Below are positions 4,452 to 21,720 of a stretch of DNA of 64,000 nt, one piece after another; the stretch's first letter is position 1, and the number at the start of each line of letters is the position of its first letter. The DNA comes from an uncultured Gammaproteobacteria bacterium (GTDB lineage: Bacteria; Patescibacteriota; Microgenomatia; Levybacterales; GWA1-39-11). The translations under genes and the position numbers were made by a program. The notes under the pieces are model-generated. The model saw nothing but the letters and a program-made list of their open reading frames with translations. It had not been told where the DNA came from and did no database searches. The DNA lies in the NCBI GenBank assembly GCA_964448725.1, contig CAYVAJ010000002.1, positions 66,587 to 130,586 on the forward strand, in the 5' to 3' direction.

Positions 4452-5096
4452 ATGGATGAGCATATAGTAAAAAAAATTGAAGAATTTTTTACTCAGTATA
4501 AACATCAGTCATATAAAAAAGGTGAACTTTTGATAAGAGCTGATGATGAACCACCAGGAGTATTCTATCTCAAAGAAGGTTTTGTAAAACAGTATGCTAT
4601 CTCGAAAAAAGGGGATGAGCTCGTCATTAATGTATTTAAACCAATTGCATTTTTTCCTATGTCCTGGGCAATTAACTCAACATCTAACAAATATTTTTTT
4701 GAAGCAATGACGGGTTTGAATATCTATCGTGCACCACGTAAGGAGACGATTAATTTTCTCAAAAACAATCCTGATGTACTTTATGACTTGATGAGTCGAG
4801 TATATAAAGGAGTTGATGGAGTATTGACGCGAATAACATATCTTATGTCAGGAAATGCATATGCACGGCTTGTTGATGAACTGTTGATTTATGCAAAGCG
4901 TTTTGGAAAAGGAGAAAATACCATAACACTAGCTGTCACTGAGAAAGACATAGCATCACAGTCTGGATTAACAAGGGAAACCGTTAGTCGAGAGATGAAA
5001 ATTTTAAAAGATAAAAGAATAATTGTGAGTGATAACCATAAGCTTATTATAAATGATTTACAAAAACTTGAAGATGAACTCGCTGATGGTGTTTAG
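4452..5096 (+). CDS. Crp/Fnr-family transcriptional regulator
   Basis: N-terminal cNMP-binding fold; C-terminal HTH (SQSGLTRETVSREMKILKDKRII). Confidence 0.75.
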   Translation: MDEHIVKKIEEFFTQYKHQSYKKGELLIRADDEPPGVFYLKEGFVKQYAISKKGDELVINVFKPIAFFPMSWAINSTSNKYFFEAMTGLNIYRAPRKETINFLKNNPDVLYDLMSRVYKGVDGVLTRITYLMSGNAYARLVDELLIYAKRFGKGENTITLAVTEKDIASQSGLTRETVSREMKILKDKRIIVSDNHKLIINDLQKLEDELADGV

Positions 5097-5491
5097 TGTG
5101 TAGATTTTGTGATTATTTCATGTGTCGGAATTATCCTGTTTCTTTTTTTCTTATCAGATGGCAGTCCTGTTGGGAGCAAATACCCTTGCCAAACGCTTTC
5201 TCCAGCTAATAACTCTAAATGATTTAAATCAGTTAATTTGGGCTCATCTTTTACTTCATAGAGTCTATATTTCCCTACTGCAAGGATACAATCAGTTTTG
5301 TGAGTATTATGAGTTGTAACAAGAATTTCTCCTATATCTGCTGCATTAACCCATGCAAAACTCTTTTTCCTATCAAGTATTAGAATTTTTGTCTGTCGTT
5401 TGGTTTCTATAAGTTGATATGAACCTTCTTGGATTACTTTAATCATATTTACTATATTAGATGATTTCGTTGAGTATGTAAGTGATTTCAA
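5093..5491 (-). CDS. hypothetical protein
   Basis: ORF only; no recognisable motif. Confidence 0.35.
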   Translation of the reverse strand: MKSLTYSTKSSNIVNMIKVIQEGSYQLIETKRQTKILILDRKKSFAWVNAADIGEILVTTHNTHKTDCILAVGKYRLYEVKDEPKLTDLNHLELLAGESVWQGYLLPTGLPSDKKKRNRIIPTHEIITKSTH

Positions 5492-5627
5492 TCAAAGATT
5501 TCAATTGATATATATCACTGCATCTTACAAATTTAGAATGTAATCTAATGTTGATATAAAATTTTTATGGTATGTATATGACAAGTAGAAACAGTTCAAT
5601 ACTCATCAAGGAAAGGAGGGAGAGTTT

Positions 5628-5798
5628 ATGAAAAATAATGCAAGCTCTGGCGCTCTCTATGGAATTGGGGTACTTGGAGCATTGGTATATTTTATTCAAC
5701 ATGCAAGTTCAATTTTGGATGGGTTATTGGGAATTTTTCTCGCGATCTTTTGGCCAGGAGTTATAGTCTATAAAGTGTTAGAGATTTTAAGAATGTAG
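5628..5798 (+). CDS. small hydrophobic protein (56 aa), not in supplied ORF track
   Basis: strong RBS GGAAAGGAGGGAG 7 nt upstream of ATG; MKNNASSGALYGIGVLGALVYFIQHASSILDGLLGIFLAIFWPGVIVYKVLEILRM; two hydrophobic helices; immediately precedes the next gene. Confidence 0.55.
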   Translation: MKNNASSGALYGIGVLGALVYFIQHASSILDGLLGIFLAIFWPGVIVYKVLEILRM

Positions 5799-5806
5799 GA
5801 ATAAGT

Positions 5807-6400
5807 ATGAATGTCCAAGAAAAAATATTAGGTGTAATCAATGATGATCAAGAGAGAAAGATAGTGGTTACACATGTAACAATACGGCAAAGTATAATAA
5901 TACTATTAGTGCGACTTGTTGTATTAGAAATGCTTGCTGCAGTAGGGGTAGTTATATTCCATGCGTTAATTATTTCTACTAACATTACAGATATTGTAAA
6001 TTATGTGAATTCTGAGATTATATTGTTTAATACTTCTCTATTTCTTTTCCTTATTTTTTTAAAAACATGCGTTATGATTTTTATTATCATCCAATGGTTA
6101 AATCAATATTATGAAATTACGCCTAAAGAAATTATCTTCAAGAGAGGATTCATATTTAAGAAGGAAGAACGAAATACGTTAGATCATCTTGGATCTATCG
6201 AGGTGGACCAGGGATTACTGGGTAGGATATTCAATTTTGGAACCATAAAATTATTTAACTGGGCAACAGAGAAGAATTTTCCTCTATACCTTATACATAA
6301 TCCAATGAAATATCATTTTATTTTGCAAACACTTCTTCCTGAAGCGGATAAAAAGAAGAAAGTTTTTAGAGAGCACTTAATTGAGCCAGAGGAATTATGA
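5807..6400 (+). CDS. membrane protein with bacterial PH (bPH_2, YdbS/YdbT-like) domain
   Basis: N-terminal TM helices followed by bPH_2-like segment (IIFKRGFIFKKEERNTLDHLGSIEVDQGLLGRIFNFGTIKL). Confidence 0.55.
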   Translation: MNVQEKILGVINDDQERKIVVTHVTIRQSIIILLVRLVVLEMLAAVGVVIFHALIISTNITDIVNYVNSEIILFNTSLFLFLIFLKTCVMIFIIIQWLNQYYEITPKEIIFKRGFIFKKEERNTLDHLGSIEVDQGLLGRIFNFGTIKLFNWATEKNFPLYLIHNPMKYHFILQTLLPEADKKKKVFREHLIEPEEL

Positions 6401-6428
6401 AAAAGGAAAATTTATAAAACGAATTACC

Positions 6429-6809
6429 ATGTTAGCGGTTTTTGCATTAGAAGGAGTGGGAGCAATTTTAGGAGGTATGTTTCTTGTAATCGCTCCAGAT
6501 GGATATTTTATGAAAATGCCTGTCGATGTGCTGCATGGTGTTTTTCCTAATTTTCTTATTCCGGGTTTAGCTTTAACAGGAATCGGAATAGTAAGTATTG
6601 CAGCATTTTTTGTAGTACTTCAAAGGAATCGTATTGATTGGATTATTGCAGGTACTGCGCTAGTTGGTTTTGTCATTTGGTTTGTAGTAGAAATTGTAGT
6701 CCTTAGAGAGATACTCTGGCTTCATATTGTTTGGGGTGCTCCTGTTCTTGTAGGTATTTGGGCAGCGTTCTCTTTAGTTCCATTTCAAAAAATAAAAAAA
6801 CAAGTCTAA
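6429..6809 (+). CDS. small polytopic membrane protein
   Basis: four hydrophobic helices; the track ORF begins at a TTG at 6381 that overlaps the upstream gene, so the first in-frame ATG (6429) was preferred. Confidence 0.45.
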   Translation: MLAVFALEGVGAILGGMFLVIAPDGYFMKMPVDVLHGVFPNFLIPGLALTGIGIVSIAAFFVVLQRNRIDWIIAGTALVGFVIWFVVEIVVLREILWLHIVWGAPVLVGIWAAFSLVPFQKIKKQV

Positions 6810-6878
6810 GTATTTCTTGACAACACCTTACAAGTTTCTTAGATGGTTTTCTTATACAAGTAATACAATTTTCTACAT

Positions 6879-7271
6879 ATGAAAGGATATGTATTAAATA
6901 TTGAAGATACAACAGAAAAAAATTCTGATTACAGACGGGTACTTTATACTGGACGATATTTACAGCTTGTAGTCATGAGTTTAAAGCCAAGAGAAGAGAT
7001 TGGTCAGGAAATTCACGGACTGGATCAATTTATTCGGATTGAAAGGGGTCTGGCAAAAATAGTACTAAATAATGGAGAAACTGAATACGATTTGAAAGAC
7101 AATTGGGCAGTCATTATTCCCGCAGGAACGTATCACAATGTTATTAATACTGGAGATGAAGATTTAAAGTTATATACTATTTACTCGCTTCCAGCTCACT
7201 TAAAAGATACCCTTCAATCTACCAAAACGGATGAGAAAGAAGATCACTTTGATGGAATAACCTCAGAATAG
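6879..7271 (+). CDS. cupin-domain protein
   Basis: cupin beta-barrel motifs (QEIHGLDQFIRIERG ... PAGTYHNVINTGDEDLKLYTIYS). Confidence 0.65.
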   Translation: MKGYVLNIEDTTEKNSDYRRVLYTGRYLQLVVMSLKPREEIGQEIHGLDQFIRIERGLAKIVLNNGETEYDLKDNWAVIIPAGTYHNVINTGDEDLKLYTIYSLPAHLKDTLQSTKTDEKEDHFDGITSE

Positions 7272-7289
7272 TAAATTATTACTCATTTG

Positions 7290-7871
7290 CTAATGTGAGA
7301 TGACTCCATAATCTTTGCTAACTGGGTCCTGAAAAAGAAAATTTTCCGGAGGGAAAAAGGTAAAATAAACGAATGAAAAAAGTAGTGCCAGAATAATAAA
7401 TGCACCAATTTTTTTTAAATTGAGCCTTTTTTCAATATAAAGTATCCTATATCCTGCATATTGACCGATGAGTATAGAAATTACAAAGATTGCTATATCT
7501 AAAAATAAGTAGTTCTCACCAAGAATTGCTGTGTACACATAAAAAAGAATAGGTATCGAAATACCGTAAGCTGCAATAGTAACAGCTTCGGCAATCACAA
7601 AGTTTTCATTTCTTACCTTAAAGAAATAATATTTAACAAGCATCCAAATAAGAAGTGGCCAAAAACCAAGCTTGATATGCTCCCATGTACTCTCATTAAC
7701 CGCAGCGATTGGTGCAACTATTAGAGAATTATTGCTCCACTCGAAAACAAAGTGTAGTGCTGCACCTAATACTAGGGTAAACAATGATCCTCCTAGAGCA
7801 AGATGTATTGAAAAGTTTTTCATAAGTGAATTGTACCAAAATACATGAATCTCTTTTTTTATTAGTACCAT
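7290..7871 (-). CDS. integral membrane protein (hypothetical)
   Basis: five to six hydrophobic helices; no catalytic motif. Confidence 0.4.
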   Translation of the reverse strand: MVLIKKEIHVFWYNSLMKNFSIHLALGGSLFTLVLGAALHFVFEWSNNSLIVAPIAAVNESTWEHIKLGFWPLLIWMLVKYYFFKVRNENFVIAEAVTIAAYGISIPILFYVYTAILGENYLFLDIAIFVISILIGQYAGYRILYIEKRLNLKKIGAFIILALLFSFVYFTFFPPENFLFQDPVSKDYGVISH

Positions 7872-7899
7872 TTTTTGTTTTCAGTGATAGACTAATAAG

Positions 7900-8436
7900 A
7901 TGAAATATGTTGCGCTTCTCCGAGGGATTAACGTGGGTGGAAATTCTAAAATTGAGATGAAGCGATTAAAAAACGTTTGTGAGTCGCTTGAGTTTGAAAA
8001 TGTCCAAACGTATATTAATTCAGGAAATGTATTGTTTGAAACTACAAAAGATAAGAAACAAATTGCACAAGCTATTGAAGAAGCAATAGTAAAAGAGTTT
8101 GGCTTTGTAGTCCCAGTAGTTGTTAAAAACAGTGAGGCAATCCGAGCAATAGACAAGGAAGTTCCAAAGACTTGGGTAAATAATACTGAGATGAAAACTG
8201 ACGTACTGTTTTTATGGGATGAAATTGATGATAAAAATATTATAAAAGATTTGATTGTAAGACCTGAAATAGACAATATAAAATATATTCAAGGTGCGAT
8301 TATCTGGAATGTAAAGCGTGCAGATGTGACAAAAAGTGGACTTCTGAAAATAATAGGAACCGATCTTTATAAGAAAGTGACGGTAAGAAATATCAATACT
8401 GTAAGAAAGTTACATGAGCTTCTAAATATTACATAA
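7900..8436 (+). CDS. DUF1697-family protein
   Basis: N-terminus MKYVALLRGINVGGNSKIEMKRLK is the characteristic DUF1697 start. Confidence 0.7.
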   Translation: MKYVALLRGINVGGNSKIEMKRLKNVCESLEFENVQTYINSGNVLFETTKDKKQIAQAIEEAIVKEFGFVVPVVVKNSEAIRAIDKEVPKTWVNNTEMKTDVLFLWDEIDDKNIIKDLIVRPEIDNIKYIQGAIIWNVKRADVTKSGLLKIIGTDLYKKVTVRNINTVRKLHELLNIT

Positions 8437-8477
8437 TGAAATTATTTTTCTAGCGAAGCCAGGCGCAGACTTGTGCC

Positions 8478-8551
8478 TGGTTGCCGAGCAGGGATTCGAA
8501 CCCCAATAAACGGATCCAGAATCCGTTGTCCTACCATTAGACGACTCGGCA
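8478..8551 (-). tRNA. tRNA-Gln (anticodon CUG), CCA encoded
   Basis: hand-folded cloverleaf: acceptor TGCCGAG/CTCGGCA with U1:A72 (typical of bacterial tRNA-Gln); anticodon loop TTCTGGA; T-loop TTCGAAT; discriminator A; 3' CCA. Confidence 0.85.
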
Positions 8552-8652
8552 GTGTTGCTGTGCTTCAATGATCAATTTCCAATTAACAAATTCCAAAAAT
8601 AATTTCTGTGATTCGCGTTCTCTATTTTACTAAAGATGGGGGATATTTCAAA

Positions 8653-9834
8653 CTATTTGCGGTTTTTTATGTCATTTCGCATATATCTAAGCTGATTGTG
8701 TCCCCAGAATAATACAAGAAATATTATGATGCCCGAAATATAGTAGGGAAGCGGTAATATGATTTCAGCCATAATTCCTCCTGTAATAGGTCCTACTACA
8801 CGGGCTAACGCTGATGCACTTTGTGCCACCCCCATGACAGCTCCCTGTTCTTCAGGTTTAGATTCAAGAGAGATAAGAGCTTGAATATTTGAATTCATAA
8901 GTGAGAAACCAACAGAGGATATCATACCCGATAGGATAATAAAGATTTCATTGAACGCCAAACCTATTCCAATAGTCGAGATTCCAAAAATTAACATACC
9001 AATTTTTATCAGTCTGGGTTCATCAAACTTTCTCAATAGTAATCTGATCAGAAATGCTTGTGTTACAAACTGACCAATACCTATAGCAACAAAATAATAT
9101 GAGGTTTGTAACTCATTCCAACCGAATCTTGCCTCAGTATATAAAGGTAATATACCTATAATAAGGGCAAGTGATGCGCTGGTTAGAAAGAACAGAAAAA
9201 TTAGGAAAGAAATATTCTTAGGAGTTAGTACCTCCTTTATAACTTTTGTATTTACAATTTCTATCTTGATTTCTTTTTGTAATGCTTTATTTGACTCGGG
9301 TAGAGCAAAGAATACAAAGATTGCATTAACGAGGGACAAGATAGCTGTCAGAAGAAATGGAAAGTGTATTCCGTACTGGTCAGCGGTTACTCCTCCAAGA
9401 AACGGCCCAATAATAAAGCCAAGACCAAACATTGAGTTAATAAGTGCAAGTCTTTTTGTACGTTCTTGGGATTTAGACGTATCTGCGACATATGCATATA
9501 CAACTGGAAGATTTCCTGTTGCTACTCCTCCCAAGATTCGCCCGATCATAATAATCCACAGATTTGGAGCAAGCCAGATGATTCCGTATGCCACAACGTT
9601 AAGTAATAGAGTAATTGCCAGTATAGGTTTCCGACCAAACTTATCAGAAAGTCTTCCCCAAATCGGAGTAAAAATAAATTGGAACAAGGAGTAGAGTCCT
9701 ATCACAACTCCTACAAGAAATGGATTATAACCACTTACGTCTTGAATCAATTGAGGGATCAACGGAATAACAATACCGAATCCGGCCAAGTCAATAAACA
9801 CAATAAATAGTAATATTAATAATTGTTTGTTCAT
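8653..9834 (-). CDS. MFS transporter (drug/H+ antiporter-like)
   Basis: 12 predicted TM helices; MFS signature loop GRLSDKFGRKP. Confidence 0.8.
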   Translation of the reverse strand: MNKQLLILLFIVFIDLAGFGIVIPLIPQLIQDVSGYNPFLVGVVIGLYSLFQFIFTPIWGRLSDKFGRKPILAITLLLNVVAYGIIWLAPNLWIIMIGRILGGVATGNLPVVYAYVADTSKSQERTKRLALINSMFGLGFIIGPFLGGVTADQYGIHFPFLLTAILSLVNAIFVFFALPESNKALQKEIKIEIVNTKVIKEVLTPKNISFLIFLFFLTSASLALIIGILPLYTEARFGWNELQTSYYFVAIGIGQFVTQAFLIRLLLRKFDEPRLIKIGMLIFGISTIGIGLAFNEIFIILSGMISSVGFSLMNSNIQALISLESKPEEQGAVMGVAQSASALARVVGPITGGIMAEIILPLPYYISGIIIFLVLFWGHNQLRYMRNDIKNRK

Positions 9835-12488: not shown

Positions 12489-12613
12489 CCTGTAATAAAC
12501 TGTTTTATTTGCATCTTTTGTAAGAAAATGCCTGAGAACATCTCGATTATTGTCTATAATGGTTCTCCAGAAAGTAAGTGAATTTTACATAATAATTTAG
12601 TACCTATAGTATA

Positions 12614-12642
12614 TTGACAGAATTAAAATTTCTGGGTATACT
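12614..12642 (+). promoter_or_regulatory. near-consensus sigma70 promoter (TTGACA-17-TATACT), here called P3
   Basis: TTGACA 12614-12619; 17-nt spacer; TATACT 12637-12642. Confidence 0.55.
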
Positions 12643-12646
12643 GAGA

Positions 12647-12703
12647 AGCAACCATATTAAGAACTGGCGAAAGTCAACTTCTTGAGACCGGTTGCTTTTT
12701 TTG
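12647..12703 (+). terminator. stem (AGCAACC/GGTTGCT) plus U7 tract; closes a roughly 55-nt transcript from P3 (candidate sRNA or attenuator)
   Basis: inverted repeat 12647-12653/12690-12696 followed by TTTTTTT at 12696-12703; internal sub-hairpins. Confidence 0.45.
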
Positions 12704-13162
12704 TACCTAAAAATCAGTCTTTTTAGACAGTTCTTTAACAAGATGTTTTATTCAGAAATTATTTTTAAGTAAAGACTGTGAAGAGAGGGCTGATTTTCTT
12801 CAGTGTTCCCTTCGCAGTCTTTGCTTACCGGCTGTGCCGGATGACGGAGGCAAAGTGGAATTGAGAGGAACAATCTTCTATTCGTAACCTTGGGACGTCA
12901 TCCCATAACAACCATTCGATTTCATTGAAAGGTACGGTCATGTTGCTCCCCGACTTTCTCCCCGACGATGTTTACGTAGACCTCATCATTGTGATGAGGT
13001 ACAACGAGATTCTTAAGGAGAAATTTCGGATGGCTGCACGCCGTGCAGTCAATAGAAAATATGAAAGTTTCGCATAGCTGACGTTTCGCTTTTCGTGAAA
13101 GGAGGCGCCTATACGCCTTTCTGTTCTTCAGTGGGGACATCGATTCATTGGAAGGGATCATC

Positions 13163-13468
13163 ATGGACACTGAAAAAAATAGTGCTTACTCCTCCTACAT
13201 GAGAAAGGAGATGGCGTGGTGGTACGAAAAGCTGTCCTCGCTTGAAGAGGAAGTTTTTCATGCACTGCTGCGCGTCTTGCAGACACCCTGCCGGGTGTTC
13301 TCAGAATGGGAAGAGGAAGCTCTTGCCCGTGAGGGGATCTGTGGACCATCTGGGCCTTGCGGATGCGGGACATACACCCGCAGAATGTTTTACCACTCGG
13401 TAGATGCCCTTCGGGCAGTCCTGCCGAGCTTCCACCGCAACAACTTCACAATCAGGTACGCCGCCTGA
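13163..13468 (+). CDS. hypothetical small protein (101 aa) in the GC-rich island
   Basis: RBS GGAAGGG 6 nt upstream of ATG 13163; Cys/Gly-rich segment EGICGPSGPCGCGTYTRR; overlapping antisense ORFs make coding status uncertain. Confidence 0.3.
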   Translation: MDTEKNSAYSSYMRKEMAWWYEKLSSLEEEVFHALLRVLQTPCRVFSEWEEEALAREGICGPSGPCGCGTYTRRMFYHSVDALRAVLPSFHRNNFTIRYAA

Positions 13469-13610
13469 TACACAACTGAATAAAATATTTAACAGCCAAT
13501 GGCTGTACATCGTGCAATAGCACGAAAATGAGCACGGGGTTATCAGGTGACAAGGTATGCTTTGCTGCATAAATGGCTTGTCTCCCGACGACTTTTACTG
13601 CTCATTATTG

Positions 13611-13641
13611 CCGGGCGGGGACACACTACTTCCCCGCTCGG
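13611..13641 (+). repeat. 11-bp-stem hairpin, copy 1 (CCGGGCGGGGA-N9-TCCCCGCTCGG)
   Basis: near-perfect inverted repeat; a second copy lies at 14292-14318. Confidence 0.7.
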
Positions 13642-13688
13642 ATACGCTCATTTCCTACAGTAGATCATTCTCATTTTTTTATTCATTA

Positions 13689-13717
13689 TTGACTCTCTTT
13701 TTGCAAGCAATTATACT
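13689..13717 (+). promoter_or_regulatory. near-consensus sigma70 promoter P1 (TTGACT-17-TATACT)
   Basis: TTGACT 13689-13694; 17-nt spacer; TATACT 13712-13717; lies within a repeat shared with 14360-14388. Confidence 0.55.
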
Positions 13718-13918
13718 GGTGAACAACCATGTAATTGGTTAAAAGCACCTTAAAGTTGAAGTGGTATTATTTCCATAAAATCCTTTAATTATATTCAGAA
13801 TTGCTCATGAGAGGAGAGTGTATAACTCTTTTGTGGTGAGCAATTCTGTTCGTTTAGAGAAAGGAGTTTATATTCGCGGTTTCTGTAGCGGTAGTGGGAT
13901 TACGAAAGGATCTCGATA

Positions 13919-14203
13919 ATGCAGGAGTCTGTTGTTGCAGACGAAGAGACTCAGGTGGGCTTAGTACTTGTCGTTCCTGCTCTGGTGTACGGACATGGTC
14001 GGCATGTAGAGTCAGTTGATGGCTTTGCCCGCCACAAAGACTGTCGTATTGTTCCTATTCCGACAGATCCGAAGAACGTGATCGTTCACTTGGGTCCTTC
14101 TTGGAGGTGTAAAACCTCTGATGGGATTACTTATATCTCTAACAACGATGGGCTCGTGTGCTACTACTGTGGGGAGTCACCTCGCGCCATCTTCTTTCTG
14201 TAG
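13919..14203 (+). CDS. hypothetical small protein (94 aa)
   Basis: AAAGGA 8 nt upstream of ATG; downstream of P1 after a roughly 200-nt hairpin-rich leader. Confidence 0.3.
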   Translation: MQESVVADEETQVGLVLVVPALVYGHGRHVESVDGFARHKDCRIVPIPTDPKNVIVHLGPSWRCKTSDGITYISNNDGLVCYYCGESPRAIFFL

Positions 14204-14291
14204 CACAAGATGAGCACCGGGTAGTCTTGGGAAGAGTAGTGCGCTGAAAGCACAATATCTCGTCTCCTGATAACTTGTACGCTCATCATAC

Positions 14292-14318
14292 CCGAGCGGG
14301 GACTCACTCCCCGCTCGG
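14292..14318 (+). repeat. 11-bp-stem hairpin, copy 2 (CCGAGCGGGGA-CTCAC-TCCCCGCTCGG)
   Basis: perfect 11-bp inverted repeat with the same 3' arm as copy 1. Confidence 0.7.
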
Positions 14319-14359
14319 TATACACATTTCAATATATTTTATAACTGCTTGCTGCGTTA

Positions 14360-14388
14360 TTGACTCTCACATATATTGTCTTTATACT
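14360..14388 (+). promoter_or_regulatory. near-consensus sigma70 promoter P2 (TTGACT-17-TATACT)
   Basis: TTGACT 14360-14365; 17-nt spacer; TATACT 14383-14388; flanking TTATTGACTCTC identical to P1. Confidence 0.55.
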
Positions 14389-14557
14389 TGTCCTCAATTG
14401 GGTCAGAATTTTAGCGTAATAAAGATTGCTTGGTTCTGATTTTATTTTAATTTGTACATTAACAGCTATTTGGAAATGTAATATTTCACAGAATCGCCGT
14501 GAGAGCAGAGTAGTAATACTCTTTTCTTCCGGCGGTTTTGTAAAGAAAGGGGGTACT

Positions 14558-14875
14558 GTGTATCGCTTTGGCATTATTGTCATGATCATGTGTCTTGTGA
14601 TTGCACCACTCATTGTGGCGCATGATGCTGTTGTCGTACTAGCTGTGTTGCTAAGCATGAACCTTCTCTGGCTTGCAGGATTTTTTCAGTCTGCAAAGCG
14701 CACTGCTTCTCGTGCACACCTTGAACAGATATACCAAACATTGGGTGTGCTTACCGGTCCTTGGTATGCAACCAAGTATACTTACGTCCAGATCAAGAGT
14801 CAGAATCATGAGGCAACAAAACCTTTGAGAAAGGAGTATGCCGTATGGCAGTCCAGAAGGTTTAGAACGGTGTAA
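14558..14875 (+). CDS. small membrane protein (about 105 aa, GTG start)
   Basis: RBS AAGGGGG 4-5 nt upstream of in-frame GTG 14558; two hydrophobic helices (FGIIVMIMCLVIAPLIV / AVVVLAVLLSMNLLWLAGFF); the track ORF starts further upstream at 14426. Confidence 0.4.
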   Translation: MYRFGIIVMIMCLVIAPLIVAHDAVVVLAVLLSMNLLWLAGFFQSAKRTASRAHLEQIYQTLGVLTGPWYATKYTYVQIKSQNHEATKPLRKEYAVWQSRRFRTV

Positions 14876-15397
14876 GCCGTTTTGTAGCTTTACTCGAATT
14901 ATTGAAGGGATAACTCATGACAAATCGGAGTAAGGGTGGATATCCAGAAAAGTCTTCTGTTCCGAATGCGCCTCGCAAACTTGTGATCGCAATTCGCGAA
15001 TACCGGAATCGAAGACAGAAGATCAATACTAACCGTAAGGATATGCGTTCAAAGAAGAATCCACTCCTTACCTAGTTCCAGATAGACACTGCGTTGGAGG
15101 ACATGGTAATCACTATGACAGCTGTACAATCGAAATCAATCGCTGAGGTTGATACGCGATCTGCAGTTTTCCTCCAACGCAGATCACATTTTTGATTTCA
15201 ACCTCTTATTTAGGTATAATTCTAGAGCCTTAAGGCGGTTTATGGTTAGTGGATTATGGTCATTAGGCAGTAAATATCTCTTTATTAATAATTCGTAAAC
15301 CATGAATCATTGACGGCCCCATCGTTTCCGATGATGGTATCATTCGGAATCCCGATGGAAACTACCATCGGGGCTAGAGGCTATATATAATACGTAT

Positions 15398-15652
15398 ATG
15401 TACTGTATGTACATTTTACAGAGAGAGGTTGATAATTCCTTTTATATAGGAAGCACGGACAATATTGATAAGAGGATTGATAAGCATAATAAAGGGTATT
15501 CAAGGTACACGAAGAGTAAAAGACCTTGGAAATTAGTGTATAACGAAATTTATAATACTCTTTCAGAGGCAAGAAAACGCGAATATTATTTAAAGTCACT
15601 TAAGAGCAGAACTGCAATAGAAAAGTTAATTAAAATTGGCCCCATCGTCTAG
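15398..15652 (+). CDS. GIY-YIG nuclease-domain protein (YhbQ/UPF0213-like)
   Basis: YILQREVDNSFYIGSTDNIDKRIDKHNKG ... YYLKSL matches the single-domain GIY-YIG family; 3' end overlaps the start of tRNA-Glu by 15 nt. Confidence 0.7.
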   Translation: MYCMYILQREVDNSFYIGSTDNIDKRIDKHNKGYSRYTKSKRPWKLVYNEIYNTLSEARKREYYLKSLKSRTAIEKLIKIGPIV

Positions 15653-15710
15653 AGGCCTAGGACATCAGGTTCTCATCCTGAAAACCGGGATTCGAATTCC
15701 CGTGGGGTCA
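15638..15710 (+). tRNA. tRNA-Glu (anticodon CUC), no encoded CCA
   Basis: hand-folded: acceptor GGCCCCA/TGGGGTC; D-stem GTCT/GGAC; anticodon stem TCAGG/CCTGA with loop TTCTCAT; T-stem CGGGA/TCCCG with loop TTCGAAT; discriminator A. Confidence 0.8.
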
Positions 15711-17160
15711 CTAAAGTTGTTTTATTGCCTGCAAAATCACCGATTAGATTGAAAGGAAGCCCTAAAGTAGCGGTTCCAAATCCTTCGTTGCTAACAGGCA
15801 TGCCACTTGGAAATAACAATGACTGGAACCTTTGTTTGTTCTCCAAATTAGACTCAAACCACAGTGATGCTACATTATCAAAGAGTGTTTCTACTAAAGA
15901 TATTAAGTGGTCTATATTTGTCTCACTCTCTCTGTAGTCTCCACGTTCAATTTCTTTTACAGTAATATTATCGTTTAATTGTTTAACCTGTGATTTATAA
16001 TCCTCATCTGAAACAATACCGTCAAGGTTTTTCTTAAGCAGTTTATCTTTCATATTTTTAAAGTGCATGATTTCTAAATCTATATTTCTAAGAGCTGTCT
16101 CTGCTTCAAGATGTTTCCTCTTCCATACATCACGTACTATTAATTGAAACAGCTTTGAGAGCTCCTGATTTGGCTGTATTGTTTTTATATACTCATAAAA
16201 TAAATTATCTAACTGCTCTTGTCTTACCCTGACAGCTCCGCATATACAATGATAGTAAGAGTATTTTAGACGTCTTCCTTTTGATTTGCTTCCTGTTAGC
16301 CTCTTCCCACAATCTGAACACGTTAGCACGCTTTTAAGTGGAAAGGTGGGATTTTTACTAAAGTGTGGTATAGCTGCTGTAACCGACTTTCCCAAACGTA
16401 TATTGTTTACTGTGTAGAATAATTCTTTACTAACTAATGGCTCGTGGGCTCCTACATGCTCTTCTCCCCACGCTTCAACTACTCCCATGTACAACTTGTT
16501 TGAAAAAATCTTTATCATTAGTTGTGGGGTTATACGTTTATTCTTCTCAGTTCTCAATCCCATCCTATTAAGTTTCTTGCTAATAGAAATGACTGAGTAT
16601 CCACCTTTGGCGTAAGTTTCAAATGCAGTCTTAATATAGGAAGCTCTAGTGTTATCAATAATTAACCCTGCAGGTGAATTTTTATAACCAATAGGAGCTT
16701 TCCAAGGCCAGTGTCCTTGTCGTGCCTTTTCTTTCATACCTTCCTTTGTCCTATCTGAACGAACATCATTGTCAAACTGTGCGATAGAAGAAAAAATGTT
16801 CTCCATTAACTTTCCCGCTGGAGTATCATCAATTTGTTCTGAAACAGACCGGAGTTTTACTCCCACTTTTAGTAATGCTGCTCTTACTGCGCTATGGTCT
16901 GCGGTATTTCTAGAGAACCTATCTAATTTATGGACTAATAAAATGTCTATCTTACCTCTATTTTCGTGACAAAATTTTAGAAGTTTTAGGAGCTGAGTTC
17001 TGTCTGCGGTTTTTGCTGACTCTCCTTGTTCTTGGAATACTTGAACAATATTCCAACCCATTCTCTCTGCGTATTCTTTACACAATTTTTCCTGGTACGT
17101 TAAGCTGTAACCCTCTATTTGTTCTTTTGTGCTGACTCTTGTGTAAAGAATGACATTCAT
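15673..17160 (-). CDS. large serine recombinase (resolvase/invertase catalytic domain, recombinase domain and zinc-ribbon)
   Basis: N-terminus MNVILYTRVSTKEQ with catalytic Ser; ...HKLDRFSRN...; C-terminal CxxC...C zinc-ribbon region; last 12 codons are antisense to the tRNA-Glu T-arm. Confidence 0.85.
   Translation of the reverse strand: MNVILYTRVSTKEQIEGYSLTYQEKLCKEYAERMGWNIVQVFQEQGESAKTADRTQLLKLLKFCHENRGKIDILLVHKLDRFSRNTADHSAVRAALLKVGVKLRSVSEQIDDTPAGKLMENIFSSIAQFDNDVRSDRTKEGMKEKARQGHWPWKAPIGYKNSPAGLIIDNTRASYIKTAFETYAKGGYSVISISKKLNRMGLRTEKNKRITPQLMIKIFSNKLYMGVVEAWGEEHVGAHEPLVSKELFYTVNNIRLGKSVTAAIPHFSKNPTFPLKSVLTCSDCGKRLTGSKSKGRRLKYSYYHCICGAVRVRQEQLDNLFYEYIKTIQPNQELSKLFQLIVRDVWKRKHLEAETALRNIDLEIMHFKNMKDKLLKKNLDGIVSDEDYKSQVKQLNDNITVKEIERGDYRESETNIDHLISLVETLFDNVASLWFESNLENKQRFQSLLFPSGMPVSNEGFGTATLGLPFNLIGDFAGNKTTLVTPREFESRFSG
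15695..15711 (+). repeat. attL-like 17-bp direct repeat (tRNA-Glu 3' end)
   Basis: exact copy of 21704-21720. Confidence 0.7.
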
Positions 17161-17169
17161 AGTATTTAC

Positions 17170-17379
17170 TTAATTCCCATTTTCGCTTTTTAGCTTCAAG
17201 GAGTCAATAACCCCACGTTGTTTTTTGGAACCGTAAGTGTCAATGTATATTTCTGCTAACACCTCCATGCTGTTAATCAGAGAGAGAAGCTCATCATCGG
17301 TAAACTTACTGGCACTCTTTCCTAATATTCTTTTAGCGGTTTTTAAGGTTACTGTTTTCATCCTGCCTATATTAGGCAT
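17170..17379 (-). CDS. hypothetical small protein (element cargo)
   Basis: ORF only. Confidence 0.35.
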   Translation of the reverse strand: MPNIGRMKTVTLKTAKRILGKSASKFTDDELLSLINSMEVLAEIYIDTYGSKKQRGVIDSLKLKSENGN

Positions 17380-17419: not shown

Positions 17420-17851
17420 TTACTCAGTAAATGCCAGTTCTTTATCTTTCTCTTCCATAATTTTCAGTGCATCAGCCAGAATATCAGGCGATACATTGAA
17501 GGTGTTATTCTGTGTGGCTTTTACTAGAGGAGAAGCATCTGTGATACCATGAGAAGCCTTTAAGAGAAATGCTGCAAACCTCGCGTTATATTTGTTGCTA
17601 AGTCCCCCGGAGATGAGCAAGTGTCTTTGAGCGTCACGAAGCATCTCCATCGTCTGCATAAAATCAGAATGCTCCTTCTCCCACTCGTATAATACCCTTG
17701 TTCCTACCCCTAAATAAGACGCTAAATGCTCAATAGTGGGAAATTCATCATTTTGAAGACACTTCTTTGTGTAATGCATTACACGTTTCGGAGTCTCTTT
17801 TGTGTACTTTGTAGGTCTTCCTCTTTTGAGTGTAAATATCTGTTGCTCCAT
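17420..17851 (-). CDS. phage terminase small subunit-like HTH protein
   Basis: GRPTKYTKE...IEHLASYLGVGTRVLYEWEKEHSDF...N..F..FLLK pattern typical of TerS proteins of Firmicutes phages and PICIs. Confidence 0.6.
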   Translation of the reverse strand: MEQQIFTLKRGRPTKYTKETPKRVMHYTKKCLQNDEFPTIEHLASYLGVGTRVLYEWEKEHSDFMQTMEMLRDAQRHLLISGGLSNKYNARFAAFLLKASHGITDASPLVKATQNNTFNVSPDILADALKIMEEKDKELAFTE

Positions 17852-17902
17852 ACTAATATTATCTCACTAATGAAGCTACTTTGTAATGTGATTTCAGTCT
17901 AA

Positions 17903-18574
17903 ATGTACTATAATCCCATCAATGTGTCATATAAAGTAATTCTGGAAAATTCTATAAAAAGTATCTTTGATGACTTTGAGAAAATGGGAGGTCATATAAA
18001 AAACCCATCAATCATTGATAGATACTTAATTGCTGCAACTTATAAAGCTGCTAGACTAACTAACACTCTCATTTTGCTATGTGAGAACGGAAAATGTGAG
18101 GATGCATTAATAATTCTGCGGTCTTTAATAGAACATACTGTAAATATGCGGTGGATTACTACCAGAGATACTAAAACAAGGATAAAAATGTATGTTAATG
18201 ATATTAGCGATAAAGGATTTGGTGCTCAATGGACCGATGTAAATTTATATGACAGAATGAAACAAATTAGTTTTGAAGATAAGGACTATTTTGATTTTTG
18301 TGTAAAGCTAACCTACTCCTATGCCCATGTAAACGCATTGTCACTAAGATGGGGAGAAGTATATGATGACCCCAGGTTAAGAGACGATGATTGGCCTCCT
18401 GATGCAATCTATCAAGTTGCTGCTCAGATGACTGGACATGTAATGCTTGCTTTGAATAAAAACTACAAAGAATATTTTAAGGGTTATGATAGGCTATGGG
18501 AGAGCATTCCGGTTGATAAGGATATCAGAAAAAAATATGAGGAAGTTAAGGAGAAGTTGAAAAATGAACGATAA
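17903..18574 (+). CDS. hypothetical protein (helical; possible defence-associated partner of the downstream HNH gene)
   Basis: ORF overlaps the next gene by 11 nt (operon); no catalytic motif recognised. Confidence 0.4.
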   Translation: MYYNPINVSYKVILENSIKSIFDDFEKMGGHIKNPSIIDRYLIAATYKAARLTNTLILLCENGKCEDALIILRSLIEHTVNMRWITTRDTKTRIKMYVNDISDKGFGAQWTDVNLYDRMKQISFEDKDYFDFCVKLTYSYAHVNALSLRWGEVYDDPRLRDDDWPPDAIYQVAAQMTGHVMLALNKNYKEYFKGYDRLWESIPVDKDIRKKYEEVKEKLKNER

Positions 18575-19319
18575 ACAGAGTTGCGTATTTTGTCATAGTA
18601 CCTCTAATAAGATGTCACGTGAACATGTGTTTCCAAACTGGTTGTGCAATCTATACCCAGAAGAAACAATGATAATAAACCAATTTATTGGTAAATCTCA
18701 AAATATTTGGCCTTCAAAAATATTTCAACATAAAGCAAAAGTAGTATGTGAACCCTGTAATAATGGCTGGATGGCTGACCTGGAAGGTGAAGTTAAGCCA
18801 ATCCTTAGTAAAATGATGCGATTATCACCCTATGTTTTGAATGAAAGAGCCCAGGCTACTTTATCATTTTGGGCTCAAAAAACGCTGTTAATGCTCAATC
18901 AAGCAGTTCCTGGAGACCTCAAGATAACTTCTGACCTGTATGATGATTTATATACCAAGAAATCAGCATCCTCTAAGGTGCTTGTACAAATAGGCTGGAG
19001 AATGCTCAATAGAGGTACAAAAGATGAACCAATCGCAAGTTTTGAATTAAAACAGATACCTTCTGTAGAAGTGCCCCGAGAACTATTAGGGGCTCTTGAA
19101 AAGCAAAAAGACTCAGGAGGCTTTATATGGAAAGCTGTCATTGCGATTGGACCAGTAGTCTTTGAAATGGCTGGTCATAATATGCAGATAACTCTTACAG
19201 TAGGCACGAACAGCAAGGTCTTCATTCCAATAAGGCCTTATAGGCAAGATATAACTTGGCCGCTGGAATGGCCGATAGAAGCTGAGGGTGGGTTACCAGA
19301 GATAAAGAGACGGCAATAA
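18564..19319 (+). CDS. HNH-endonuclease-domain protein
   Basis: N-terminal CVFCHSTSNKMSREHVFPNWL ... CEPCNNGWM (C-x2-C ... EH-x2-P ... C-x2-C-N), an HNH/His-Me finger. Confidence 0.6.
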   Translation: MNDKQSCVFCHSTSNKMSREHVFPNWLCNLYPEETMIINQFIGKSQNIWPSKIFQHKAKVVCEPCNNGWMADLEGEVKPILSKMMRLSPYVLNERAQATLSFWAQKTLLMLNQAVPGDLKITSDLYDDLYTKKSASSKVLVQIGWRMLNRGTKDEPIASFELKQIPSVEVPRELLGALEKQKDSGGFIWKAVIAIGPVVFEMAGHNMQITLTVGTNSKVFIPIRPYRQDITWPLEWPIEAEGGLPEIKRRQ

Positions 19320-19404: not shown

Positions 19405-20364
19405 CTATGCCATACCCAAGTACTGCATTATTGCTGATGCAATCATTGAGCCTGCTGTATTATTTGCTACAGATATACTTCCTTTACCTATCATAATCAT
19501 GACTCTTGATATCCAACTCGTTGTAGCAGGTCCTGGTTGTTCCTCGGATTTCTCGTCCTTAGACAAAGCGTCTTCTAACTCAGTTATCAGTGCGTCTGTT
19601 ACACCCAATTCCTTAAGAGATTTTTTTAATCCATCAAAGTCCCCTGGGCGTACAACTATATTGTTCTGGGTTGTAGCACCAAAATTACCCACAGAAACGT
19701 TACCCCCGTATATTATGTTATGAACATTTTGAGTAACTTTTTTGTCAGTAGGTGGAGATACTTCAACCTCTTCTTTCCCTTTACTACCCTTAATATCTAA
19801 TTCGTCTTCTATGCTGAGAACAAATTCAAGTACCCGTGTTCTTATTGTATCCAGTATTCCTCCCAACCTAGCTTTGCTAATCACCCTCCAAGCAGAAGCG
19901 AGTACCATGCCTCCACTAAATATCTCTTTGGTTTGATAAAATGCAATAACATCTGCGGGCCAATGTGACGACAGTGTGTCTGTCTTATCTCCTTGTGAGG
20001 ATAATTCTTCCAGTTCTGCAACTGGCTCAGTCATATAGTTTGTGAATAACATTTTCCGATGCTTCTTATCTATAACTGACTGTGGTACTTGTATATTACG
20101 ATATCCACTTCCGAATGGACCTGAGAGATGGCCCATTACCTGTGCTCCAAACTCTCTATAATCAGGTAATCCATCATTAGATGTATACCCATTAAGCTCA
20201 GATTGAGACCATTTCACTAGTTCATCATTTTGCAGCAACTTTCCGAGTCTCATGCAGAGACGCAACACTTCACTCAGAGGAATGTCATGACCAGTTGAGC
20301 CATCTTTAATTTTTTTTATGAGTTCACTGACTTCACTTAAATCTACAGTTTTATTCTCTGCCAT
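19405..20364 (-). CDS. AbiTii-like abortive-infection protein
   Basis: N-terminal LSEVLRLCMRLGKLLQNDELVKWSQSELNGY matches the AbiTii N-domain signature (LRK.KVLA..L.N.E...W...ELNGY). Confidence 0.55.
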   Translation of the reverse strand: MAENKTVDLSEVSELIKKIKDGSTGHDIPLSEVLRLCMRLGKLLQNDELVKWSQSELNGYTSNDGLPDYREFGAQVMGHLSGPFGSGYRNIQVPQSVIDKKHRKMLFTNYMTEPVAELEELSSQGDKTDTLSSHWPADVIAFYQTKEIFSGGMVLASAWRVISKARLGGILDTIRTRVLEFVLSIEDELDIKGSKGKEEVEVSPPTDKKVTQNVHNIIYGGNVSVGNFGATTQNNIVVRPGDFDGLKKSLKELGVTDALITELEDALSKDEKSEEQPGPATTSWISRVMIMIGKGSISVANNTAGSMIASAIMQYLGMA

Positions 20365-20417: not shown

Positions 20418-21386
20418 TCAATTATAGGCACTGCACTGTTGCTGGTACGCTTCATCGTTCTTAACTTCTTGTTCCATCTTATTTCTAGTTCCTGTCCATA
20501 CACATTCATTGTATTGGGTCTCCGTAAGTGAATTGGCTTCCTTTAATTGCGTACAAGCAACTATGGAGTCTTGAGTTTTTTCCTCTACTGAAAGGGTAAT
20601 CCCCAGTGCGGGGTTCAAGTCTACATCCTCCTTTAATCTAGCAAAAATTGACCTTCTTTCCTCGTCATGCAGCTGATTTAAGAAAATTGACTGTGCCGTA
20701 AAAGCATCAGCCTCCTGTCCAAAACATTCCAATTTTTCTTTAGTCTCACGTTGATATATCTCCTGTCCTACATGTGTTAGCTCATGTATTAAAATAGTAG
20801 CAATTGAGAGGTCATCGTAAGTCTTGTACTGGGGGTGCAGTATAATTTTCAATGCATCTGTTGGGGAATCCGTCATAAATCCTCCTTCTAAGTCCATTTC
20901 AGATGCCTCTTCTGAATACTGAATATCAAGACAGTTTCTGTAATCAAAAGCCCTTCCATAGTACGAGCCGGGGTTATTCTCTATATCCAACCGCTGTGAT
21001 ATCAAATCCAAGGCTCTATTAATTTCTGGCTCTAAAGCGTGTGGAGTACCTCTCAAACAGCGTGCTACTGGTGCTGTTCTCGCACTGTATTCCATATACC
21101 CAACTAACCCTGTCCCTAACAGCCAAAAAATGATTAGAAAGACTGAAACCATCCTAAATCGCTTCTTCCAAAATGTTATTACTGAAAACAAGGCTGTAAA
21201 GACTGCCCATAAGATGACAACCCTCCACATGTTTTCTCCACCAATGGCTGCCCGTTGCTCATAGAGTAACCCGTCCGCGGTTCTCATGAACGGGAACATC
21301 GCTACAAAAAATATCACAGTTACAATTCCCAGAAGAAATAGGCGGGAAAATATCCTTTTAACTGATAGGTTATATCTCTTACTCAT
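20418..21386 (-). CDS. membrane-anchored HExxH zincin-like metallopeptidase-domain protein (DUF4157-like)
   Basis: three N-terminal TM helices; ILIHELTHVGQE motif resembling the DUF4157 HELxHVxQ signature. Confidence 0.45.
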   Translation of the reverse strand: MSKRYNLSVKRIFSRLFLLGIVTVIFFVAMFPFMRTADGLLYEQRAAIGGENMWRVVILWAVFTALFSVITFWKKRFRMVSVFLIIFWLLGTGLVGYMEYSARTAPVARCLRGTPHALEPEINRALDLISQRLDIENNPGSYYGRAFDYRNCLDIQYSEEASEMDLEGGFMTDSPTDALKIILHPQYKTYDDLSIATILIHELTHVGQEIYQRETKEKLECFGQEADAFTAQSIFLNQLHDEERRSIFARLKEDVDLNPALGITLSVEEKTQDSIVACTQLKEANSLTETQYNECVWTGTRNKMEQEVKNDEAYQQQCSAYN

Positions 21387-21703: not shown

Positions 21704-21720
21704 AATTCCCGTGGGGTCAC
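21704..21720 (+). repeat. attR-like 17-bp direct repeat
   Basis: exact copy of 15695-15711. Confidence 0.7.

Follow-up and report, generated by a model that had tools for sequence, protein, structure and literature searches.

Overlapping DUF5677 and HNH_5-like genes as candidate conflict cargo of a 6.0-kb element at tRNA-Glu in a Patescibacteria genome

Here, we propose that two overlapping genes, A and B, in a stretch of 64,000 nucleotides (nt) of Patescibacteria DNA (assembly GCA_964448725.1, contig CAYVAJ010000002.1; hereafter the window) are accessory cargo of the conflict type, most likely anti-phage or abortive-infection genes, to judge by their context. They are carried by a 6.0-kb element inserted at a tRNA-Glu gene. 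The proposal is based on B having an HNH_5-like finger with intact catalytic residues, on A being a helical protein of the DUF5677 family, and on the company that the relatives of both genes keep. We draw a distinction between such cargo and a dedicated, co-inherited two-gene system, which A and B, from the distribution of their families, are not.

The genes and the region that precedes them are laid out as follows (positions are those of the window):

17852..17923, no strand: divergent control region of about 70 nt with the conserved blocks (A)ATTATCTCA and CTTTGTAATG (four-way alignment)
17924..18574, + strand: gene A, DUF5677 helical protein (PF18928 match, AF2 model, family alignment, comparative start)
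18564..19319, + strand: gene B, 251 amino acids (aa), HNH_5-like N-terminus (open reading frame (ORF), family alignments)
18582..18788, + strand: residues 7-75 of B, Cys4 His-Me (HNH_5-type) finger (hhalign, family invariance)
18789..19316, + strand: residues 76-251 of B, family-specific C-terminal region (family conservation)

Genes A and B and their families

The N-terminus of B reads CVFCHSTSNKMSREHVFPNWL ... VVCEPCNNGWM. A first-pass annotation of this DNA had recognised an HNH-type finger here from the motif CEPCNNGWM, and our analysis upholds it, with its catalytic residues intact. The finger is laid out as C7xxC10, E20-H21, an insertion of about 22 aa, and C62xxC65-N66. The Pfam HNH_5 model (PF14279) stays below threshold on B (20.1 against 27.5 bits, covering residues 7-29 only), and 23 of the 27 B-family members match it, all below the Pfam cut-off (best E = 2e-5). 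When the B-family alignment A1 was compared by hhalign with a bona fide HNH_5 protein (L007:8760-9500, 34 bits), residues 4-75 were matched at 92.4% probability and E=5e-7. Among the 83 B-superfamily loci, and counting those that cover each column, C7 (79/79), C10 (81/81), E20 (82/82) and H21 (82/82) are invariant, as is W26 wherever it is covered; E74 and W103 are nearly so. The columns of C7, C10, E20, H21 and W26 lay outside the retrieval pattern with which these loci had been collected. C62, C65 and N66 are invariant in the superfamily too, and also in alignments A1 and A6, but they belonged to that pattern. Because the catalytic and zinc-binding residues are invariant across the superfamily, the finger looks catalytically competent.

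B has in common with HNH_5 (PF14279, Group 1/8; Jablonska et al. 2017, PMC5714182) the zinc finger CxxC...EH...CxxCN and an overall size of about 250 aa, and a true HNH_5 gene adjoins B relatives at two loci (L007 and L089). It differs in its insertion of about 22 residues, which separates the EH strand from the CxxCN helix, in NNGWM...E, W26 and W103, which are particular to its family, in the scores of its members, which remain under the Pfam cut-off, and in its C-terminal 175 residues, for which hhalign showed no homology with the C-terminal part of the HNH_5 protein. This C-terminal region was described at first as lacking a recognisable motif, and so it does: residues 76-251 match nothing in Pfam or among PDB sequences, about 175 residues for which no homologue was detectable in either, and a PDB sequence search with the whole of B likewise returned nothing. 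Within the family, W103, K106, T107, G196, P225 and W232-P233 of this region are conserved. Full-length homologues with 20-82% identity and an undisrupted frame identify B as a real gene. At least 566 matches to the family occur in species-representative genomes (Actinomycetota, Patescibacteria, Acidobacteriota and others); the 118 public relatives are all unnamed or "hypothetical", none with a recorded Pfam domain, and plasmid-borne relatives are annotated as hypothetical or unannotated throughout.

Gene A is open from an ATG at 17903 (17903..18574, + strand, 223 aa) to a TAA at 18572-18574. Its true start is most likely the GTG at 17924, which would give a protein of 216 aa, because homologues start there, public gene calls agree and a TATAAT box (17909-17914) falls inside the longer ORF. 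Full-length homologues at 34-84% identity, again with an undisrupted frame, identify A as a real gene. Of the initial description of A as all-helical and unrecognised, the first half is borne out by an AF2 model (nine helices, pLDDT 79.8, pTM 0.78) and the second does not quite hold: residues 40-172 pass the Pfam model of DUF5677 (PF18928) with 43.6 bits against a gathering threshold of 27.1, and precomputed PF18928 assignments are present on nearly all of its 51 close homologues. The subfamily to which A belongs is rare, with 210 clusters at 50% identity in 1.84 billion representative proteins (one per cluster). A PDB sequence search with A gave nothing beyond a weak similarity of residues ~130-198 to 2i9i_A (E=0.0075), a 254-aa "hypothetical protein"; the similarity is centred on an invariant segment of A, TYSYAHVN, where the confidence of the AF2 model is low.

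The polar residues R73, S74, E77, H78, N81, H142, N144, Q175 and H179 are invariant in the alignment of A's subfamily. They include RSLIEH, or R73-x4-H78, which has the form of a HEPN motif and which is invariant in the 29-member subfamily only. In 77 distant DUF5677 relatives, R73 is kept in 72 and position 78 is usually occupied by L, I, T or V, so that R73, S74 and E77 persist while H78 gives way to aliphatic residues. Because of this replacement we stop short of assigning A to HEPN. A Pfam scan of A gave no match in the HEPN clan, hhalign of A against the HEPN-like families that accompany B gave no signal (the partner alignments are shallow), and Foldseek placed the AbiV structure 9bj7 on the model of A at E=1.4 (TM 0.28/0.34). 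As a statement on the whole family, a HEPN RNase is not upheld, in view of the variation of H78 together with the null results of hhalign and of Foldseek against PDB and BFVD, for which values are given below. A resembles the helical, Arg-helix proteins encoded near nucleases in HEPN modules (AbiV, AbiU2, Ymh; Anantharaman et al. 2013, PMC3710099), and relatives of B are indeed paired with proteins of the Ymh type or with HEPN-like RNxxxH proteins; among the differences, A has no Pfam HEPN assignment and H78 is not kept in the wider DUF5677 family.

Conserved operon, separable families

A and B overlap by 11 nt, the ATG of B (18564) lying inside the end of A (stop at 18574), and the sequence AAGGAG stands 10 nt 5' of that ATG. 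The overlap, from which translational coupling had been read at the outset, is real, and the operon is kept with the same 11-nt overlap in the sibling elements L102, L103 and L104 at 67-70% identity. A and B diverge to a similar degree across the siblings (84/82, 67/70 and 70/69%). The two genes and a divergent gene for a gp3-like helix-turn-helix (HTH) protein stay together in the L102-L104 elements despite a recombinase that is only 29% identical, and the gp3-like gene is kept with A, at 62-75% identity, in L090, L091, L102, L103 and L104.

The control region between the gp3-like gene and A was compared in a four-way alignment (window, L090, L102, L103), where its mean column identity is 80% and both conserved blocks are invariant; the proteins that flank it are 62-75% identical in amino acids. 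The TATAAT box is kept in the siblings 9-11 nt 5' of the start of A, and at this distance A would have a very short leader or none. This box emerged from the comparative alignment only, a sigma-70 promoter scan having given matches at chance level, and a terminator scan found none. The conservation of the divergent region points to common regulation by the gp3-like HTH protein, which probably regulates the A-B operon.

Outside this lineage of elements the two families go separate ways. None of the 12 metagenomic loci of the A family includes B, nor do L107 and L108, which have A only (66-67% identity), for a total of 0/14 other A-family loci with B. L090 and L091 carry the gp3-like gene and A without B. 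Conversely, DUF5677 lies within 6-8 kb of B, by narrow and broad profiles, at 0/83 of the other B-superfamily loci, three contexts of B in addition to these 83 gave no A-family gene, L112 has B (40% identity) without A on another element with a recombinase and a gp3-like gene, and searches with broad and far-only DUF5677 profiles near other B genes revealed no divergent copy. L090 (624-2229) and L102 (1315-3664) are natural presence/absence variants, B being found only in L102; a gene of 312-314 aa with a SEC-C motif, 65% identical, lies 3' of the module in both, and the junction in L090 keeps about 15 nt that resemble the first codons of B. By this comparison of loci, A and B are combined in this lineage of elements alone, and either family occurs mostly without the other. 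The idea that the genes make up a two-gene defence system therefore stands as regards a conserved operon and falls as regards a dedicated, co-inherited pair.

Relatives of B have other partners. In four Saccharibacteria loci (L011-L014, about 4872-6777), the gene 5' of B, which overlaps it by 4-8 nt, encodes a Hypoth_Ymh protein of 370 aa that scores 45.9 bits (cut-off 25). In 12 Streptomyces-type loci (about 5995-8800, including L009, L015, L016, L018, L032, L033, L045, L050, L057, L061 and L063), B is followed after 47-82 nt by one or two tandem genes for proteins of ~310 aa with an invariant RNGxxH, a Cys4 ribbon and sub-threshold matches to HEPN and DUF3644, an association that holds down to 34% identity between the B copies. 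Ymh and DUF3644 are both HEPN families (PMC3710099). Other neighbours of B relatives are Mrr, a second HNH_5 protein, a PIN-like protein and a trypsin-like protease, and the small ORFs 5' of B in relatives from the Candidate Phyla Radiation (CPR) showed no mutual relationship and no common family. As for A, its relatives are met in a serine-recombinase island that carries Shedu SduA_C and PLDc_2, and they also adjoin ORFs that were read as DNA methylases from sequence, with no family search. On the strength of these gene neighbourhoods, the contexts of both families are typical of conflict genes, and B together with a HEPN-type gene in Saccharibacteria and Streptomyces may itself be an undescribed two-gene module.

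In light of these neighbourhoods, what might A and B do? We tentatively favour, as a reading that falls a little short of probable, that they are conflict-type cargo in which B is a His-Me effector, A is a helical partner specific to this lineage, and the control region is shared with the gp3-like HTH protein. In such a scheme the HTH protein would control the operon, B would be a nuclease effector that its own C-terminal domain restrains or targets, and A would act alongside it as a modulator or as another effector, in a role that would parallel that of the HEPN-type proteins beside B in Saccharibacteria and Streptomyces. Phage infection would activate the system, and the resulting cleavage of nucleic acid would abort the infection. 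In support of a cargo role, DUF5677 is statistically enriched beside serine recombinases (bioRxiv 10.1101/2025.10.07.681051), and the DUF5677 genes of that study, obtained with the RADS pipeline as carriers of a candidate defence domain, are of the same Pfam family and occur in the same serine-recombinase-adjacent cargo context as A. The enterococcal ORF reported there is a single gene without reported protection, whereas A is of a rare subfamily and is coupled to an HNH-type gene.

Several results weigh against the favoured reading. The only E. faecalis DUF5677 ORF to be assayed was not among the five that protected (bioRxiv 10.1101/2025.10.07.681051). Neither A nor B has a match at E<=1 in PADLOC-DB v2.0.0, in keeping with the earlier remark that the pair fits no named system. 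Foldseek found nothing for the model of A at E<=0.001 in PDB (best E=0.64) and no significant match among the viral models of BFVD, and the Rx4H motif of A is lost in distant DUF5677 members. At L004, B (57% identity) stands alone among housekeeping genes. Finally, B and its Streptomyces partner show no co-divergence (rho -0.10).

The occurrence of the B family, which is widespread and comes with a range of HEPN-type partners, suggests a modular two-component system. It is conceivable, if doubtful, that B founds a large family of His-Me nucleases of about 250 aa that are the constant effector of such an anti-phage system, with a swappable partner that may be a HEPN protein of the Ymh type, a HEPN-like protein with RNxxxH and a zinc ribbon, a PIN-like protein or DUF5677, and that A-B is the DUF5677 version.

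We consider it unlikely that A-B is instead a toxin-antitoxin, or addiction, module that stabilises the element, with B as nuclease toxin and A as antitoxin or immunity protein. The layout is the classic one, with the partner gene first and the nuclease gene after it, in overlapping frames on a mobile element; the sister element that has A and has lost B is what an orphan antitoxin would leave; and variable ORFs of no known family often lie 5' of B, overlapping it or 2-20 nt away. Against this, B in several genomes (e.g. L004) lacks any co-directional neighbour, which argues that it is not intrinsically lethal, and A-family genes are widespread without B. A, with its 216 aa and many invariant polar residues, is more like an enzyme or a sensor than a simple antitoxin. 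The consistent co-occurrence of toxin and antitoxin that a type II module implies is not seen, B being without A at 83 loci and A without B at 14.

That A and B are an obligate, dedicated defence system, neither gene working alone, is distinctly improbable. Their coupling, an identical overlap kept at 67-82% identity and their parallel divergence among the siblings would all fit. The counts just given, which include the search with broad DUF5677 profiles, speak against it, as do the existence of a sibling element without B and the 40%-identical B of a related element that has a recombinase and a gp3-like gene but lacks A.

We think it very unlikely that B is a selfish, free-standing endonuclease of the homing type that inserted 3' of A, with A as unrelated cargo. 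HNH fingers are common among homing endonucleases (PMC5714182), its presence in L102 and absence from L090 are precise, the genes on either side being the same, and in many genomes it is solitary with varied neighbours. On the other hand, the remnant of about 15 nt of its start in L090 suggests deletion rather than insertion, the 250-aa architecture is conserved across phyla, the Streptomyces association with a HEPN-like partner is stable over the range of identity given above, and phage genomes, in which free-standing homing endonucleases are concentrated, contain hardly any B. Among 50,697 phage genomes, B had one weak partial match (26%, to the N-terminal half of B) and A had none. The sole phage relative is gp33 of the temperate Gordonia phage Lysidious (L110 3845-4822), a 325-aa hypothetical protein whose gene lies between the tail genes and a serine integrase, a typical position for a prophage moron. 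PHROGs gave families of unknown function only, which for B is phrog_38451 and nothing else. The possibility raised at the start that the genes are a structural or replication pair of phages was checked in both collections, neither of which contained such a pair. PADLOC searches with 27 B-family and 29 A-family members gave scattered matches only (E>=0.002).

Small satellites carry terS-like genes. It is nevertheless extremely improbable that A and B serve the life cycle of the element, with B as an HNH protein that assists the terminase-like gp3 protein in satellite packaging or excision: B does lie about 0.7 kb from the gp3/terS-like gene, but terL, portal and capsid genes are missing from the island, no annotated PHROG matches B, its one weak phage match is integrase-proximal and not in a packaging module, most B loci have no gp3-like gene nearby, and a terminase-helper role for B is rejected on the near absence of A and B from phages and the lack of terL and portal genes in the island.

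The element at tRNA-Glu

The remaining features of the island are:

15638..15711, + strand: tRNA-Glu (CTC), integration target (ARAGORN, Rfam)
15673..17160, - strand: large serine recombinase, 495 aa (Pfam Resolvase 130 bits, Recombinase 51 bits)
15695..15711, no strand: 17-nt direct repeat AATTCCCGTGGGGTCAC, left copy (attL core), equal to the tRNA 3' end (repeat search)
17170..17379, - strand: 69-aa ORF between the recombinase and the HTH gene (ORF call; no Pfam match)
17420..17851, - strand: gp3/terS-like HTH protein, 143 aa, divergent from A (Pfam GP3_package 62 bits, PHROG terminase small subunit)
19405..20364, - strand: AbiTii-domain protein, 319 aa, convergent with B (Pfam AbiTii 132 bits, PADLOC AbiTii 134 bits)
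20418..21386, - strand: 322-aa protein with HExxH (ILIHELTHVGQ) and a hydrophobic N-terminal region (translation, weak DUF6782 metallopeptidase match)
21704..21720, no strand: 17-nt direct repeat, right copy (attR core), right end of the island (repeat search)

A and B sit in a genuine integrated island, as the 17-nt direct repeat at tRNA-Glu, the serine recombinase and AbiTii attest. The first-pass annotation had placed them in an island between a terS gene and AbiTii, and it was right on both counts, the two neighbours being confirmed by Pfam and PADLOC. The repeat copies are perfect and 6,009 nt apart; they are the only two in the 64 kb, even when 2 mismatches are allowed, against a chance expectation of 0 (100 shuffles). 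Zn_ribbon_recom scores 24.1 bits on the recombinase, slightly under its cut-off of 25.3. The stop codon of the recombinase lies within the tRNA-Glu gene, on the opposite strand, with an overlap of 39 nt, and since its last ~13 codons span the att core they would change on excision.

The place of the 69-aa ORF is occupied by a 59-aa ORF in L103 and L104, and matches to the former by tblastn were confined to contigs of the same organism. The AbiTii gene is variable cargo outside the conserved module and is missing from L102, L103 and L104. Its protein continues for ~125 residues past the Pfam domain, in a C-terminal extension that matches no Pfam family; in other bacteria, according to the literature, AbiTii is fused to Ymh or c2405 HEPN domains. 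The 322-aa HExxH protein may be one more piece of conflict cargo. By the ORF list and Pfam, none of the island genes codes for a terL, portal or capsid protein.

In its length of about 6 kb, its specific site, its few genes and its variable anti-phage slot, the element is like PICMI (PMC10803314) and small defence islands. PICMI satellites consist of int, AlpA, a primase (DUF3987/DUF5906) and Fis, without terS (PMC10803314), whereas this element has a large serine recombinase, the 69-aa ORF and the gp3-like HTH protein, with no primase, AlpA or Fis among the Pfam matches of the island genes.

Outside the island, about 2.9 kb of the window (12500-15390), with lon on one side and a GIY-YIG ORF on the other, contains no ORF above 150 aa on either strand and has a G+C content of 0.42-0.49, compared with about 0.36-0.40 nearby. 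Rfam gave nothing credible for this stretch and no tandem repeats were found in it; it may represent a large non-coding RNA, an intron-like element or genes in decay.

Meaning for the B family and for Patescibacteria

Should A-B prove to be an addiction module or B a selfish nuclease, the finding would be an ordinary one. If the genes are a defence system, they would add a new nuclease family and a function for DUF5677, in a group, the Patescibacteria (CPR), that is thought to carry few known defences in its small genomes. If the modular reading in particular is true, this would be the first functional assignment for DUF5677. The wider pattern, an unnamed HNH_5-like family that spans Actinomycetota and CPR and whose various HEPN-type neighbours make it a concrete candidate for a modular two-component system, may be more useful than the single locus from which it was reached.

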